Assembly: GCA_965207445.1 (NCBI GenBank)
Contig: CBDBLX010000002.1
Span: forward strand, 608,001 to 672,000
Direction of reading: 5' to 3'
Length of the DNA stretch: 64,000 nt
DNA from: Nitrosopumilus sp.
Lineage (GTDB): Archaea; Thermoproteota; Nitrososphaeria; Nitrososphaerales; Nitrosopumilaceae
Shown: in pieces, positions 15,001-51,000 of the stretch
Numbering within the stretch: position 1 is the stretch's first letter
Layout of the letters: each line of letters starts with the position of its first letter
Position numbers: made by a program

Positions 15001-18000
15001 CCAACGATTAACGCAGAAGACCCAATATCAAATATGAAATAGTTATATGTAGAATATTATGCAAACTTGTTATGAAATTATTTAATATGATATTGTGTAG
15101 TGTTTTGGTGGCTACAGTATCATTGATAGGGTTTGAAATAATGTATACTGATAATAATGATAATAATAATAGTCTAGTAGTTCAAGAGGCTAGTGCTCAA
15201 AAACCCTACCCGCCTGAACAAATAGGACGTCTCCCAACCTCAGACATGCTACCTGTATGGACACCTAATCAACCAGCACAACCAACTGGAATGCCAGCTA
15301 ACATGAGTAACGTAAATGTTGTGTTTAATGTGGTTATACCATATCTTGGAGGTTGGATACATGAAGATGTCTCTCCATACTTTGCAGACCCCTCTGTTTC
15401 ATTTCGCTATGTTACACTTATTCTAAATGTTGGATATGATGCCAGTGCACCCTATCACCCAACTGCAGTAGGTGTATACTCTAATATCGAAAATAGACCT
15501 GTAGCCGAATATGCCGATGATGAGAACATCAATGTAGCTGTAATGCATGCTCTATACCATCTTGCACTAGAACTTGATTCGAACAAAAAGGATCGTTGGG
15601 ATGAAATGCTAACTCGTATAGGACTTGATCCTACTGATAGACGTGGCCTTGACCTTGACTGTAGCACCACTCAGACGATATCTGATCCAGTTGTAATTGG
15701 TAACTTTGCTGGAAAATGTGTCATCGAAGGACGTCAAAATGATGGATTTAACTATGGCAACACTTACTCTTACTCTGGAACTTATCCTATCATACCTAGT
15801 ACCGTTAATTATACTCCCGTAAATACTGCTACTAATCTAGTAGACCCCTCAAAGTGGCAACCACAACTAGTAACCAAACATAACACACAGTTTGTACAAC
15901 AGTTTGTAACCCCACAATGGGCAAATACAGAGCCATATGCAATAGGATTTAACCCTCGAGACATTAGAACACCTTCTCCTGTAAATAGTGACTATGCGAA
16001 CAACATGGCCGGCTACAAGGCACAAGCAGATGAAGTAATTAATGCAGTTGCAGGTTTAACAGATGAGCAAAAGATGATTATCGAATATTTTGACAACAAG
16101 GCTCGTGAAGTATTGTTCTTTCCAGCAGTAGAGGCAATCAACCCTGAGACTGGCATGCCACACAGAACAGCAGACTTTTTCCGACTAGACTTTATGTTGC
16201 ACATTGCACAATTTGATGCAGGTATATTCACATGGCAAGAGAAAGCCATACATGATGCAGTACGCCCAATAACTGCAATTCAGACAATTTACGGTGACCA
16301 GATGATTCGTACATTTAACGGACAGATGGTATCTGGAAATGACTGGACATCTTATGCTGATGTCGGAGACCACCCAGAGTATCCGTCTGCCACTGCTTGC
16401 TTTTGCGCAGCACAAGCTGCGGCATGGAAACAGTATCATGGTGGTAGTGATACAATTCCAACATTCCAACATCCTCTGTTAGGTCCAGTACCTGGATTCA
16501 CTGGTGTCCTACCTGCTGGCTCTTCAATATATGAGCCTGACATAACTCCTCAAAACAACGTGACTGTAAACTTTGATACATGGTCTGATTATGTTGATAC
16601 GTGTGGTGAGAGTCGTATATGGGCAGGACTGCACTTTAGAGATGCAGTAGATGCATCAATTGAGGTGTGTGATGATATAGGTAATCTTGCGTTTGCATAC
16701 TTTGATACTTTGCTAGATGGTACTGCACAATCGCCTAGAACTCCTGCTGTGGCACTAACTCCTTATGTGGCACCCGTGTCTGCAATTTGTCGTTAATCTT
16801 ATTTTCTAAACACAACTCCTACATACTGTTGAAGACATGTGGGTATTGAAAAACAAACCCCGGCATAATCTTACAAAATGAAAAACATCTCTAAAAATAA
16901 AAATAACTACAATTTATCATAAAATAGTAATTGCCTCAAAACATGGGGACGATGGGACTTGAACCCATGATCTCCAGCGCCCGAGGCTGGCAGTATACCA
17001 AGCTAACCTACGTCCCCGAGTAATTTTTTGTATGTTGTAATATGAACCATTGACATTGTATTTTAGTAATCATTTAACTCCCTTCCTACGCCAGACGTTA
17101 AGTGGTGAATCTATGCCTAAATTTGGTAAGAAATTGAACGGTTACTGTATTTTAGATCAAATTGACGTATTAGATGTTTTTAACTTGTTTTCACACTAAA
17201 GTGTATTAGATTATAAATCCATATTCTTTAACTGTGGTTTAAATTTAAAGGATAGCTTTTTATACAAAAATTAAGGCAAAAAGCTAAATTGGTTGGGGAG
17301 TTAGCAGGCAATTATGGTACAATTGCGCTAATGTTTGGTTTTGCTGCTGTTGCTATGGCACCTGCACTACTTGTTTCAAGAATGATCTCGCCTCGCAAGC
17401 GTAGCAACCCTGTAAAGTTTTTGCCTATGGAGTGTGGTCAAGTGCCTTCAGGTGAAGGACGTACACATTTTATGATGCAGTATTATCCATATATTTTGAT
17501 GTTTGTTGTATTTGATGTGATGGCAATCTTTTTGTATGCTTGGGGTAGCGCACTTTTTGAGCTTCCAAAAAGTGCTACTTTGCCTATGATCGGATTTCTT
17601 GGCATAATGTTCGGCGCTATGGCATTTGCACTATATCAATCGGGGAGAAAAAAGATATGGTAGTTTCTTATATGCGAAATTTCTATTGTATATTGATGAC
17701 TGATAGTGGGCTGAGCATTCATAAAAGTGAAAAAGGGGGGTGTTTGGTCTAAATGCTCAAAGACTTGGTGACTCCTGAGAATGCCAATGTTTTTGTTGGC
17801 AAACTCGGTGACATACTGGAGCGTGCAATTGACAAACCTCTTGGGTATGCAATAAATTGGGGCCGAATATGGTCACTGTGGCCTGTACATATTGAAACTG
17901 CGTGCTGTAGTGTAGAGTTTGGTGCTGCATCTGGACCACGTTATGATGTTGAACGATTTGGTATTATCGAAGCATTTGGTTCATTACGTCAATGTGATTT

Positions 18001-48000: not shown

Positions 48001-51000
48001 TTAACTATACTCCTGTAAATACTGCTACCAATCTAGTAGACCCCTCAAAGTGGCAACCACAACTAGTAACCAAACATAACACACAGTTTGTACAACAGTT
48101 TGTAACCCCACAATGGGCAAATACAGAGCCATATGCAATAGGATTTAACCCTCGAGACATTAGAACACCTTCTCCTGTAAATAGTGACTATGCAAACAAT
48201 ATGGCCGGCTACAAGGCACAAGCAGATGAAGTAATTAATGCAGTTGCAGGTTTAACAGATGAGCAAAAGATGATTATCGAATATTTTGACAACAAGGCTC
48301 GTGAAGTATTGTTCTTTCCAGCAGTAGAGGCAATCAACCCTGAGACTGGCATGCCACACAGAACAGCAGACTTTTTCCGACTAGACTTTATGTTGCACAT
48401 TGCACAGTTTGATGCAGGTATATTCACATGGCAAGAGAAAGCCATACATGATGCAGTACGCCCAATAACTGCAATTCAGACAATTTACGGTGACCAGATG
48501 ATTCGTACATTTAACGGACAGATGGTATCTGGAAATGACTGGACATCTTATGCTGATGTCGGAGACCACCCAGAGTATCCGTCTGCCACTGCTTGCTTTT
48601 GCGCAGCACAAGCTGCGGCATGGAAACAGTATCATGGTGGTAGTGATACAATTCCAACATTCCAACATCCTCTGTTAGGTCCAGTACCTGGATTCACTGG
48701 TGTCCTACCTGCTGGCTCTTCAATATATGAGCCTGGCATAACTCCTCAAAACAACGTGACTGTAAACTTTGCTACATGGTCTGATTATGTTGATACGTGT
48801 GGTGAGAGTCGTATATGGGCAGGACTGCACTTTAGAGATGCAGTAGATGCATCAATTGAGGTGTGTGATGATATAGGTAATCTTGCGTTTGCATACTTTG
48901 ATACTTTGCTAGATGGTACTGCACAATCGCCTAGAACTCCTGCTGTGGCACTAACCCCTGATTCGGGTGTACAAGAAACGATACGAATAGGTGCATTTGT
49001 TCAATATACAACTGCGATCGATGATACTCACAACTTGAGGGCAATGCAACTCTCAGTTGATGATCTTAACAGTGACTCTAGAATAATGACTGAATATAAT
49101 GTACAACTTGTACCAATAGACATTACAGAGAACATCAACAATGCAAACTATGCTGGTATATCTACAATAATGCAAAATGCAGTTATCAACCAAGGTATCA
49201 CGAACTTTATAGGCCCCGGTGACAGTGTAGCACTCGTGCCTGCAAAACTTGTCTCTGATCAGATTCCAAATACTGTATTGATATCTGCTGGGTCATCTGC
49301 ACCTGTGATACCACGTCTTAATGCTCCTCCGATTTATCTCAATGATACTAGTGATGGCGTATTTAGACTAGTACCAAGTGACACACATCAGTCTGAAAAT
49401 CTTTTAAATTTTATAGTGAGTGAAGGAAAAGAAAAGTTCATTATACTAGTTAGAGATGAATGGACATCAATTGTAACTAGTTTGATTCCAGATTCTGCTA
49501 GTGAATTGGTTGATTATCCTCTGATACCTTTTCCTAGAGCAGAAATCTTTGCAAATAACGAATCTGTTGCCATTGCAAGCCATTTAACATTTGCACAAGA
49601 TCTTGACAACAGATTAAGTGGCTTGATAACATCTCAAGGTGACGCGGATGATGTGGCAGTCTTGTTTATAGGATATCCACTTGACTTTGAGTATAGTGCA
49701 AAAGCTATCTTGTCTGATAACAGTTTGCAGAATTTACGTAATGTGAAATGGTATGGTGTTTCTACAATGATAGGTGAGTCTGCAACATTACGTGATGCAA
49801 GTGTAGCATCTTTTGCTAATAGCGTTGACTTGACGGGAACCAGATATACAGTTCAAAGCAACGACGTTAATGAAAATCTGTGTTATAGATTGCAACAACA
49901 AGGTACCATGTGTAGTCCATATGAATATGAAATATTTGCTTCGTATGATGCAGTACATTTGTTGGTAGATGCTATCATTTTATCTGATCATCGCAACAGT
50001 GATGCGGATCTGACAAACAACTTGTCTGTAAGAGATGCTGTATATCGTGTGGCAGCAGGACAAGACCAGCATCATTTGGCTAGTGACAGAAGAGCTGTTG
50101 GTTCTGGTGCTTTGGGTGACTATGTGCTTAACTCTGCAGGTGATTTGGAAAAACCTAGACCACTAGAGTATTCAATATTGAGTGCAACTATTGATCCGTC
50201 AAATCCATGGACCAAATTATTATCATCATCATCTCCAATATGTCGCTAGTTGTCTCAAATACTATATTTACAGTACAATAAAGATACCATTAAAAATATA
50301 ATCAAAAGTACTTGTAGTATGTCTATGATATTTTTTGATTAAAATAATTTTGCAAAGCAGTATTTGTAAATAAAATATATGATTAAACTACTTTAACCTG
50401 TCAGTGGTGCTATTGACGTTATTGACGTGAACCAATATCCATAAATAATATAATCATTTAAAAATAACTACTAGCCAAATGCATCGCATGTACGATACTC
50501 GATATGCAGAAAAAATGTGAGCAAATACACGTATGTGATTTTATTATTATATCCAAAGAGTTTGGTTCACACCGTTATTGATATTGATGCTATTGTGGTG
50601 ATGCTATTGTGGTGATGCTATTGTGGTGATGCTATTGTGGTGATGCTATTGTGGTGATGCTATTGTGGTGATGCTATTGTGGTGATGATGGTGTTATTGT
50701 TTTTATTGTAATTTTATTTACAAATCTACAATCTACAATTAAACGATTATTATAATATCATTTAGACTTATGCACCACGTATAAAACGAGTATATTTTAG
50801 CACAATACATGACTCATCGTGTTGCGGTACTTGACAAAGACTTGTGTCAGCCTAGAAAATGTGGTCTAGAATGTATTAAATACTGTCCTGTAAACAAATC
50901 TGGTGCTGATTGTATAGTCCTTGATGAGACCTCAAAAAAGGCTACTATTGATGAGAATATATGCAATGGATGTGGCATATGTGTCAAGGTATGTCCGTTT

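Follow-up and report, generated by a model that had tools for sequence, protein, structure and literature searches.

The window analysed here, a stretch of 64,000 nucleotides from a Nitrosopumilus sp. genome (GCA_965207445.1, contig CBDBLX010000002.1, positions 608,001 to 672,000), contains two genes identified by homology as vanadium haloperoxidases (VHPOs), the second fused to a complete periplasmic-binding protein (PBP) module (Table 1). These are exactly the two copies in the genome. The host is an ammonia-oxidising archaeon with sponge-symbiont traits, and the enzyme type has hitherto been studied in bacteria only; no paper in the literature searched connected it with ammonia-oxidising archaea, as the preliminary description of this DNA had stated.

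Table 1. Features of the two VHPO loci (positions in the window; residues numbered from the ATG)
Feature	Position	Strand	Details
AhpC/TSA peroxiredoxin	11868..12341	-	left border of VHPO-A insert
IS element	12883..15023	+	perfect 28-nt terminal inverted repeats
Transposase of this IS element	13098..14885		SWIM + DDE_Tnp_IS240 domains
Putative TATA-like box, TTATAT	15043..15048	+	24-29 nt 5' of VHPO-A ATG, by eye
VHPO-A gene	15072..16796	+	574 aa; predicted hydrophobic anchor/signal 1-21; variable linker to ..EASAQ (39-43); body 44-565; tail ..YVAPVSAICR
Conversion tract, copy A	15184..16763	+	99.05% identical to 47380-48959
Active-site codons, copy A	16098..16634	+	K343 16098, K391 16242, R398 16263, S439-A440-T441 16386-16394, R515 16614, H521 16632
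tRNA-Pro(CGG)	16944..17017	-	genome's only copy; within AhpC-nuoA insert
IS66-family element	44707..46930	-	transposase 44763..46742; between pepA and 5S rRNA gene
5S rRNA gene	46936..47055	-	VHPO-B-PBP lies between it and ABCE1
Putative TATA-like box, TTTATA	47236..47241	+	27-32 nt 5' of VHPO-B ATG, by eye
VHPO-B-PBP fusion gene	47268..50249	+	993 aa; predicted anchor 1-21; VHPO body 44-565; type-I PBP ~572-985; joint ..ALTPDSGVQ/ETIRIG..; tail ..SSSSPICR
Conversion tract, copy B	47380..48959	+	end is exact start of PBP part
Active-site codons, copy B		+	same residues in order: 48294, 48438, 48459, 48582-48590, 48810, 48828
Mature type-I (LIVBP/ANF-receptor-like) PBP module	48960..50246	+	complete, own Cys-Arg tail

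Both proteins carry the Pfam domains DUF6851 and VCPO_2nd (scores of 94-100 bits; cut-off 27), and B additionally carries ANF_receptor (39.8 bits, cut-off 25.4). The frame of VHPO-B is open from a TTG at 47259, the first start given by the ORF tool, and yields its 993 residues when counted from the ATG. Searching the PDB with phmmer, the best solved relative of VHPO-A was esVHPO of Enhygromyxa salina (9ptr, 1.6e-96 over residues 63-551), followed by XhnO11 (9l8x, 9e-80), NapH1 (7.7e-72), NapH3 (1.1e-64) and, distantly, fungal VCPO (~4e-4). The AlphaFold2 model of the VHPO (pLDDT 88.7, pTM 0.90) placed it similarly in Foldseek, with TM-scores of 0.90 to XhnO11, 0.84 to NapH1, 0.85-0.87 to NapH3 and ~0.5 to fungal VCPO, and acid phosphatases at E-values above 0.01 (PAP2 about 0.01-0.1). 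The preliminary description had reported both reading frames, their Pfam domains, the leading PDB matches, an identity of 94% between A and B, and common features at both termini; all were reproduced, the identity holding over residues 2-565 of the protein. A and B are thus recognisable from their sequences as full-length NapH1/esVHPO-type VHPOs, as had been proposed, with the vanadate site intact in both.

The active site was mapped residue by residue onto esVHPO (in which chain numbers are the published numbers plus 20). The vanadate-site positions K373, R380, S427, A428, R490 and H496 correspond to K391, R398, S439, A440, R515 and H521, while S429, K329 and E327 correspond to T441, K343 and D341, all verified in both copies. 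Hence every vanadate ligand and the halo-amine lysine are kept, and the partner serine is replaced by threonine. In an alignment of our sequences with 119 homologues, K391, R398, S439, R515 and D341 were each present in 121/121 sequences, K343 in 120 and H521 in 119, with position 441 being Thr in 102 and Ser in 19. By analogy, vanadate would be covalently bonded to His521 and held by Lys391, Arg398, Ser439, the backbone of Ala440, Thr441 and Arg515; H2O2 would convert it to peroxovanadate, which would then oxidise a halide. The hairpin above the site is short, resembling that of esVHPO, a bromoperoxidase, rather than that of NapH1, which is 12 residues longer; this makes bromide the more probable halide. 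Lys343 would trap the oxidised halogen as a halo-amine and hand it on to a separate substrate pocket, consistent with selective VHPOs, in which the oxidised halide is kept as a long-lived lysine halo-amine and HOX is not released (10.1101/2025.10.24.684477).

This fold and its anion site could instead serve chemistry other than halogenation: either catalysis independent of vanadate, such as a NapH3-like isomerisation, or phosphatase action on extracellular phospho-esters. NapH3 (8CXL), which nearly equals NapH1 in its sequence and structural similarity to A and B, shows that non-halogenating reactions are possible on this scaffold; bromination by esVHPO is abolished in its S429A variant, and the dyad serine is Thr in A and B. 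The vanadate site also accepts phosphate, and 3bb0 is a trapped phosphate intermediate in apo-VCPO. However, NapH3 has lost both dyad residues, having Thr in place of the Lys and Phe in place of the Ser, whereas A and B retain Lys343 and a hydroxyl residue, and their homologues keep Lys343 and Asp341 almost without exception. The PAP2 acid phosphatases (PhoN/PhoC) have a distantly related fold in the second helical bundle and an anion site resembling that of A and B; their second motif is PSGH, with a proton-donor His. This His is absent from A and B, which have PSAT in its place, are two-bundle proteins of more than 500 residues, and match phosphatases far more weakly than VHPOs. A non-halogenating function is therefore improbable.

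The closest characterised system is esVHPO and its alkyl-quinolone (AQ) VHPO subfamily (PDB 9PTR/9PTS), with which A and B have in common the vanadate ligands, the halo-amine lysine, the Ala of the S-A-S/T turn and the short hairpin, as well as, according to the published descriptions, an N-terminal export signal, predicted in A and B, and the absence of a biosynthetic cluster around the gene (10.1101/2025.10.24.684477, 10.1101/2024.07.31.606109). They differ in their archaeal host, the Thr in place of Ser429, the Cys-Arg tail and the PBP on one copy. The pockets differ too: G334 is L348, H436 is Q448, and T358/N359 are L376/H377, leaving D355 (D373) as the sole compared pocket residue that is kept. 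Hence alkyl quinolones are unlikely substrates, and something else would be halogenated. NapH1 (3W35/3W36) and XhnO11 (9L8X), biosynthetic selective vanadium chloroperoxidases/halogenases, share the fold, the dyad lysine and the full set of vanadate ligands, but belong to natural-product pathways according to published descriptions, whereas A and B lack a cluster context: neither gene adjoins a biosynthetic cluster, an H2O2-generating enzyme or a transporter.

Both proteins begin with one or two lysines and 18-19 hydrophobic residues, and both end in ..ICR. This hydrophobic segment is long, and a conserved A-x-A-Q follows ~18 residues past it, so that the segment may be either a cleaved signal or an uncleaved anchor. 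A C-terminal Cys-Arg is found in 16 of the 2485 ORFs of at least 120 residues, against 3.5 expected; a hydrophobic N-terminus is present in 11-12 of these, and many of them are giant proteins. The tail is thus present on many predicted surface proteins of this genome. Bacterial AQ-VHPOs are reported to be mostly secreted (10.1101/2024.07.31.606109). The apparent secretion proposed previously therefore stands as a prediction: these termini make an extracytoplasmic location likely for A and B, which would be retained at the cell by the hydrophobic segment, the Cys-Arg tail, or both.

Each VHPO gene is an insertion specific to this genome within conserved core synteny, and each is adjoined by an IS element. 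VHPO-A lies between AhpC and nuoA, which are 4.9 kb apart here and 65-105 bp apart in 15/20 same-genus genomes (1.8-7 kb in 3/20; the remaining 2/20 are incomplete and uninformative). VHPO-B lies between the 5S rRNA gene and ABCE1, which are separated by 3.7 kb here and by 47-128 bp in 20/20. The IS element beside VHPO-A has three near-full copies elsewhere in the genome at 96-98% identity, plus fragments, and the TATA-like box lies between its end and the gene; the IS66-family element has many copies genome-wide. The enzyme bodies share an ungapped tract of 1580 bases with 15 mismatches, comprising 10 synonymous and 5 replacement differences (as a measure of selection, ratio 0.15; none at an active-site residue), outside which no DNA similarity between A and B was found. 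Correspondingly, protein identity is 516/522 over residues 44-565, but 15/43 over the N-terminus; the anchors are 48% identical in DNA, and the tails are also dissimilar. As the near-identity is limited to the enzyme body, A and B are, on this comparison, older paralogues recently homogenised by gene conversion.

The distribution noted earlier was also recovered: PF21167 occurs in 11/221 family genomes, this one counted, including 8/10 of one other genus and 1/20 of its own. This bears on the suggestion that the enzyme serves mainly to destroy extracellular H2O2, with the help of a halide, for a cell without catalase, halogenated products being a side effect. This genome (96.4% complete) yielded neither a heme catalase nor KatG or Mn-catalase, the VHPO-A insertion directly adjoins the AhpC gene, and ammonia-oxidising archaea are H2O2-sensitive. 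Yet the AhpC gene next to VHPO-A already supplies a peroxiredoxin, and 210/221 family genomes sampled lack the enzyme, which is therefore not a common solution to a problem that all share. Furthermore, selective VHPOs keep the oxidised halide bound to a lysine and do not release HOX (10.1101/2025.10.24.684477), which makes them poor peroxide sinks without an acceptor, and a ligand-binding module is ill-suited to bulk detoxification. Peroxide removal as the purpose, as first advanced, is consequently speculative and, as the main function, decidedly improbable.

In VHPO-B, the last ~10 residues are replaced by a complete PBP. Each of six stand-alone homologues of this module (identity 45-56%, coverage 97-99%) bears a signal peptide with ..AQ at its end and closes with a ..CR tail, and the in-frame joint coincides exactly with the mature N-terminus of these proteins; all 51 family-invariant columns are kept. 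The model (pLDDT 78) best matched LIVBP, mGluR, GABA-B and Atu2422 (Foldseek E-values of about 1e-13 to 1e-14), thereby sharing the fold of LivJ/LivK and receptor flytrap domains, although it is just 12-17% identical to solved binders, is fused to an enzyme, and belongs to a subfamily for which no adjoining ABC transporter was found. The genome's own LivK-like protein, adjoining livHM, is 26% identical. In line with the earlier claim, a VHPO joined to a whole small-molecule-binding protein of this kind was not found elsewhere in the databases searched: the fusion was absent from the best 150 of 1536 matches, from 14 longer homologues and from 221 family genomes. Neither was a VHPO found near stand-alone PBP homologues, at 0/4 genome loci (flanks of up to 10 kb) and 0/1 metagenome locus, nor any VHPO-PBP adjacency in the 221 family genomes.

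Being known from one genome, the fusion may be young and neutral. It could have arisen by accident, through a deletion or an IS element that joined two genes for secreted proteins and left a working VHPO with an idle PBP, or one serving as a spacer or surface attachment. Its rarity, the unconserved VHPO-PBP neighbourhood, the IS-rich genome, and the tandem arrays of similar modules in relatives' giant surface proteins (open frames of 2364-3034 aa) would all fit. However, the precise joint, the entire module with its own tail and the native composition (GC3 0.26-0.30, against 0.28-0.32 in core genes) argue otherwise, as does the fact that this enzyme has been paired independently with Cache, which is likewise a ligand-binding fold located outside the cytoplasm. 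An accidental origin is therefore somewhat unlikely. The narrower proposal of a recent IS66 chimera found no support: the same joint and composition count against it, the closest genomic paralogue of the PBP part is just 32% identical, and the 5S rRNA gene separates the IS66 copy from the fusion gene.

Instead, homology favours a joint reading, which we consider probable: A and B would be selective haloperoxidases at the cell surface, probably using bromide, and B would in addition capture a ligand through its extra module. The Venus-flytrap PBP would most likely capture or concentrate a small amino-acid-like ligand beside the enzyme. Cache domains may play the same role in relatives, comparable to a carbohydrate-binding module on a glycosidase. 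Cache and VHPO are fused in G110 (same genus) and G083; in G125 an 816-aa Cache protein begins 4 nt after the VHPO; P0124 has a C-terminal Cache, and dCache_2/sCache_2 occurs in 4/14 longer homologues. These fusions and operons, in at least three related genomes as well as metagenomes, are on the sequences compared independent of VHPO-B. They share its enzyme family, host family and an attached or adjacent extracytoplasmic small-molecule-binding module, but the module has a Cache rather than type-I PBP fold and is mostly N-terminal, and the enzymes form a different VHPO clade, 44-46% identical to A and B and ending ..TGR rather than ..CR.

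The two genes that the preliminary description presented as a haloperoxidase pair were recovered at the same positions (see table), and a genome search found exactly two copies in this Nitrosopumilus assembly (2.61 Mb in 2 contigs, 96.4% complete, 5.5% contamination), which also contains archaeal amoA, with 3HP/4HB carboxylase genes and the nuo operon inside the window. The finding is real: it is a known kind of enzyme, the vanadium-dependent haloperoxidase (VHPO), in an unexpected host, and with an unprecedented partner domain. The shorter protein is termed VHPO-A, and the longer, which has a C-terminal type-I periplasmic-binding protein (PBP) module, VHPO-B-PBP.

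Coordinates of the features discussed, counted along the window
Feature	Position	Strand	Remarks
VHPO-A	15072-16796	+	574 aa
VHPO-B-PBP	47268-50249	+	993 aa from the ATG at 47268; open frame from TTG 47259
Cys-Arg tail codons	A 16791-16796, B 50244-50249
IS element in VHPO-A insert	12883-15023		perfect 28-nt inverted repeats
SWIM/IS240-type transposase	13098-14885	+
Imperfect direct repeat	12351-12364 / 17020-17033		14 nt
Tandem array	12552-12616		13-nt unit, about 5 copies
tRNA-Pro(CGG)	16944-17017	-	only copy in genome; within 4.9-kb AhpC-nuoA insert
NuoC (30-kDa subunit)	18277-19236	+
Serpin gene	32644-33996	-	Pfam Serpin, E 9e-110
IS66 transposase	44763-46742	-
Tandem array	50571-50708		14-nt unit, about 9 copies
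Direct repeat	55354-55557 / 58919-59121		204 bp, 96.6% identity
rve-integrase gene	56351-57484
Transketolase_N/epimerase ORF	59040-60857	+	605 aa

Both proteins match Pfam DUF6851 and VCPO_2nd (94-100 bits against a cut-off of 27), and no NCBIfam model matches either the enzyme part or the PBP part. The proposed NapH1-type family was borne out, the best solved relative being esVHPO of Enhygromyxa salina (9ptr; E 1.6e-96 over residues 63-551), followed by 9l8x (9e-80), NapH1 (7.7e-72) and NapH3 (1.1e-64), with fungal VCPO at about 4e-4. An AF2 model of the enzyme body, built from a 56-row alignment (pLDDT 88.7, pTM 0.90), retrieved XhnO11 (9l8x; TM 0.90), NapH1 (3w36; 0.84) and NapH3 (0.85-0.87) with Foldseek, and fungal VCPO at about 0.5, and the two-helical-bundle NapH1 fold is predicted for both proteins. 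The initial concern that these might be PAP2-like phosphatases is unlikely to hold. PAP2 acid phosphatases have three motifs, the second of which, PSGH, contains a histidine; this residue is missing from the corresponding HPEYPSAT of A and B, and acid phosphatases were retrieved by Foldseek at E > 0.01 only.

According to excerpts of the esVHPO study (10.1101/2025.10.24.684477), H496 binds the vanadate, which K373, R380, R490, S427, S429 and the A428/S429 backbone keep in place; PDB chain numbers are those of the paper plus 20, as derived from the PDB sequence alignment. The vanadate-site residues of A and B, identical in both, are H521, K391, R398, R515, S439 and A440, with K343 for K329 and D341 for E327. 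Both copies retain the covalent histidine, the lysine, the two arginines, the serine and the backbone of the next residue. Across an alignment of 121 sequences (A, B and their 119 closest homologues), K391, R398, S439, R515 and D341 are invariant, while K343 is kept in 120 and H521 in 119. The same excerpts describe a long-lived bromamine formed on K329, from which the halogen passes via a tunnel to a separate pocket, and an S429A variant that kept iodide oxidation and lost bromination. In the part of a 2026 preprint comprising its Table 1 (PMC12871659), this Lys-Ser dyad (NapH1 K324/S427, esVHPO K329/S429) separates selective halogenases from non-halogenating kin. Non-halogenating NapH3 has Thr and Phe at the dyad positions; A and B keep the Lys, and have T441 at the Ser position, where 102 of the 121 sequences have Thr and the other 19 have Ser. 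Taken as a whole, the strong homology suggests that A and B function as haloperoxidases.

The substrate pocket, by contrast, differs from that of the alkyl-quinolone enzymes (AQ-VHPOs). For esVHPO G334, H436, D355, T358 and N359, both copies have L348, Q448, D373, L376 and H377, D355 alone being kept, and these positions also vary across the 121 sequences; G334F and H436A nearly abolished bromination by esVHPO, according to the excerpts (10.1101/2025.10.24.684477). Above the vanadate entry, A and B share with esVHPO a short hairpin, to which NapH1 adds 12 residues. As this difference in length tracks bromo- versus chloroperoxidases in the same excerpts, the short hairpin is a weak pointer to bromide as the halide.

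The relationship between the two genes is not that of a simple duplication. BLASTN aligned them with 99.05% identity (15 mismatches, 0 gaps) over 1580 bp (15184-16763 and 47380-48959), and detected no similarity beyond this tract, at either end of which identity drops to background inside one 60-nt window. The 112 nt coding for residues 1-37, read in the same register, are only 48% identical. When VHPO-B-PBP is read from its ATG the N-termini are collinear, with 43 residues ahead of K44, of which 15 are identical; ..SLIGF.. and ..EASAQ are shared. Residues 44-565, in comparison, are identical at 516 of 522 positions. Such tract-limited identity, combined with unlike N-terminal ends, is the signature of gene conversion between older paralogues, and the enzyme bodies of this pair were recently homogenised in this manner. 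Ten of the 15 differences are synonymous and five are replacements (N77D, V144A, R182S, D490G, D502A), none of the 15 touching a catalytic residue; the pN/pS of 0.15, although calculated from small counts, points to purifying selection on both copies. A TATA-like hexamer, identified by eye, precedes each ATG by 24-32 nt.

Each gene is an insertion confined to this genome. Firstly, the segment between AhpC and nuoA/nuoB is 65-105 bp in 15 of 20 same-genus genomes and 1.8-7 kb in three, the remaining two being incomplete and uninformative; here it is 4.9 kb. VHPO-A starts 48 bp past the end of the IS element in this insert, which has three further near-full copies in the genome (96-98% identity). 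The only repeat bracketing the insert is a 14-nt imperfect one, which may reflect chance in AT-rich DNA. The tRNA-Pro(CGG) gene in the insert sits elsewhere in a relative (G226). Secondly, the 5S rRNA gene and ABCE1 are separated by 47-128 bp in all 20 same-genus genomes, and by 3.7 kb here, the gap being occupied by VHPO-B-PBP; on the opposite side, the interval from the 5S gene to pepA contains an IS66 copy. A misassembly in which flanks were swapped across the two 1.58-kb repeats was rejected, as it would break synteny on all four sides, and one core copy must read on into the PBP either way. A recent foreign origin was similarly rejected: the GC3 of both genes (0.26-0.30) is that of core genes (0.28-0.32), hence neither part was newly imported from a donor of different composition, and the nearest relatives have the same archaeal-type N-terminus and Cys-Arg tail.

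Long low-complexity repeats occur in both transposases: the SWIM/IS240-type enzyme has DDNG runs and an 84-nt duplication, while KKDEEL is repeated about 25 times in the IS66 enzyme. Each of the two IS families is present many times in the genome. Perfect short tandem arrays are present in the non-coding DNA of both inserts, and a longer direct repeat flanks the rve-integrase gene and a DUF499 fragment.

From about residue 566, VHPO-B-PBP is a complete type-I binding protein. Residues from about 590 to 903 match Pfam ANF_receptor with 39.8 bits, above the cut-off of 25.4, and the Atlas features of this part score 0.95 to ANF_receptor/Peripla_BP_6 clusters. Its AF2 model (pLDDT 78, pTM 0.78) retrieved LIVBP (LivJ/LivK), Atu2422, and the mGluR and GABA-B flytraps with Foldseek (E about 1e-14, 12-17% identity); the model and the profile match both indicate a Venus-flytrap fold. 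A profile search of PDB sequences found LIVBP-type binders only, with E values no better than 3e-6. In six stand-alone homologues of 450-489 aa, with 45-56% identity over 97-99% coverage, the signal peptide ends in ..AQ, the mature protein starts with ..EIKIGAL.. and the tail is ..CR. In the fusion, the VHPO tail ..PAVALTPD is followed by five residues and then ETIRIGAF.., which aligns with the mature start of the homologues, and therefore the join is at the mature N-terminus of the PBP. A complex prediction for the VHPO body and PBP scored 0.00 (mark 0.32), which counts neither for nor against docking. No ABC transporter or receptor partner was found beside the fusion gene or beside the stand-alone homologues, which adjoin a giant Ig-like surface protein and threonine synthase/ThiF. 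The best paralogue of the PBP part in the genome is 32% identical, and the livHM genes are elsewhere, adjoining a different, LivK-like protein that is 26% identical to it. This 1613-aa ORF (G000:C2:~505600-513917, outside the window) comprises four LivK-like PBP domains in tandem and immediately precedes the livH/livM permease genes; it would be a four-fold binding protein for a LIV-type ABC transporter.

The preliminary description had found the fusion in no other homologue listed, and wider searches agree. None of the best 150 of 1536 matches joins both parts (HMMER against 1.84 billion representatives, with Pfam checks), none of 14 longer VHPO homologues has a PBP, and no PBP match is adjacent to or near a VHPO match in 221 genomes of the family. 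A metagenome scan with the PBP alignment gave two loci, one of which (L035) is cut at the PBP 5' end and has threonine synthase and ThiF downstream; scanning genome contigs with P0268, a PBP homologue, gave four loci with no VHPO within flanks of up to 10 kb. P0268 and P0005, a 63%-identical VHPO, may be on one shared contig, the longest contig of each being listed as 19,297 bases.

Elsewhere, this enzyme family is repeatedly linked to the Cache domain, which likewise binds ligands outside the cytoplasm. The only other one in the genus (G110, 1018 aa) and that of G083 (1000 aa) have dCache_2/sCache_2 N-terminal to the enzyme, and the homologue P0124 has Cache domains C-terminal to it; in G125, a gene for an 816-aa Cache protein starts 4 nt beyond the VHPO gene, with a 1186-aa Cache protein nearby. 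PF08269 or PF17200 was found in 4 of the 14 longer homologues. Further fusions involve HYR/Big_9, a GDSL lipase with RTX repeats, DUF4114 and a tandem double VHPO, hence the VHPO domain is a common building block of surface proteins. As two unrelated small-molecule-binding folds, PBP and Cache, occur on one enzyme family, the most economical reading is that the PBP would capture the substrate or aim the enzyme. The homologue P0269 (1070 aa) scores 877 bits, about twice the usual, and is probably two VHPO bodies in tandem. An NDH2-like Pyr_redox_2 flavoprotein gene lies beside VHPO genes in two relatives (L028 9362-10699 in G006; L030 4769-6088 in G125), and could be a peroxide source or a mere coincidence.

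The termini of both proteins suggest a location outside the cytoplasm. The N-termini have K or KK, then 18-19 hydrophobic residues (by eye), a variable stretch of about 18 residues and a conserved ..EA.AQ, such that each may have either a cleaved signal or an uncleaved anchor. The C-termini end in Cys-Arg, as do 16 of 2485 ORFs in the genome (at least 120 aa), against 3.5 expected from marginal frequencies; in 11-12 of the 16 the N-terminus is strongly hydrophobic, and six have lengths of 1087-3825 aa. Several of these ORFs encode giant surface proteins. The tail is common to the VHPOs of an entire clade, including proteins that NCBI labels 'Thaumarchaeota archaeon', and to every close stand-alone homologue of the PBP part; it is also present on homologues in other archaeal MAGs. 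The mature chains have odd numbers of cysteines (7 in A and 9 in B), so the terminal Cys would be the odd one out. According to an excerpt of 10.1101/2024.07.31.606109, most AQ-VHPOs of bacteria are secreted, and the molecules on which they act are exogenous.

The enzyme is patchily distributed. Of the distribution first described (11 of 201 genomes of the family, 8 of the 10 in another genus, 1 of 16 in the genus itself), the 11 genomes with PF21167, this one included, and the 8 of 10 stand, while the totals are now 221 and 20, respectively. PF21167 is found in one of two genomes of a second genus and in those 8 of a third, and in none of the other 24 genera; a control search found it in 0 of 14 well-known genomes. 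In a midpoint-rooted FastTree phylogeny (141 sequences of at least 450 aa, 498 columns, read without support values), A and B are sisters inside the CR-tail clade, around which ..TGR-tailed proteins of the third genus branch. Archaeal clades with Cache fusions or with ..TGY tails are elsewhere in the tree, interleaved with proteins labelled Poriferisocius and Acidimicrobiaceae. The genome also has serpin and livHM genes, which fit traits given for sponge-associated ammonia oxidisers in the parts consulted of PMC6790972 and PMC13552627. The patchy distribution marks the VHPO as part of a host-associated lifestyle, rather than of core nitrifier physiology.

This distribution also bears on whether the enzyme mainly detoxifies peroxide, as had been proposed. 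Catalase, KatG and Mn-catalase were indeed not found in the genome, and an AhpC gene borders the VHPO-A insert. This role is kept as a rival explanation; however, the scattered occurrence of the enzyme counts against it, as does the way in which enzymes of this type retain the halogen.

Selective VHPOs are prized as biocatalysts; to our knowledge, they have been characterised from bacteria only, and there is no study of an archaeal one. Some MAG homologues already bear the name 'vanadium-dependent haloperoxidase' at NCBI, as pointed out before. In the library searched, no paper ties haloperoxidases to Thaumarchaeota, Nitrosopumilus, ammonia-oxidising archaea, Cenarchaeum or Nitrosopumilaceae, in line with the preliminary description. 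The sole co-occurrence with Nitrosopumilus (PMC12193338) appears unrelated by its title, PMC6644159 names haloperoxidases as an enzyme class only, and the main text of PMC7848895 contains none of the terms sought; none of the literature matches listed describes a natural VHPO-PBP or VHPO-Cache fusion.

Archaea would belong to the makers of marine organohalogens if these enzymes are active. The repeated joining to ligand-binding domains of two unrelated folds offers a handle on the substrates, as the ligand of the module is probably the substrate. A broader reading, which we consider improbable, is that sponge-associated ammonia-oxidising archaea display surface selective halogenases, each with a ligand-capturing antenna (PBP here, Cache in relatives), that brominate specific amino-acid-like metabolites or signals of the host or neighbouring microbes. 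Were this true, archaea would be a so-far unrecognised source of sponge organobromines, such as bromotyrosine-type precursors, or of halogenating signal interference, and this would be the first natural small-molecule-binding domain to serve as a substrate-recruiting module on a halogenase.

Elsewhere in the window, NuoC is extended at its N-terminus by about 185 residues, which include ten PAAKPT repeats and a poly-Pro run. The 605-aa ORF joins Transketolase_N (62-324) to ribulose-phosphate 3-epimerase (342-540), and is followed downstream by the C-terminal half of transketolase and then by transaldolase.
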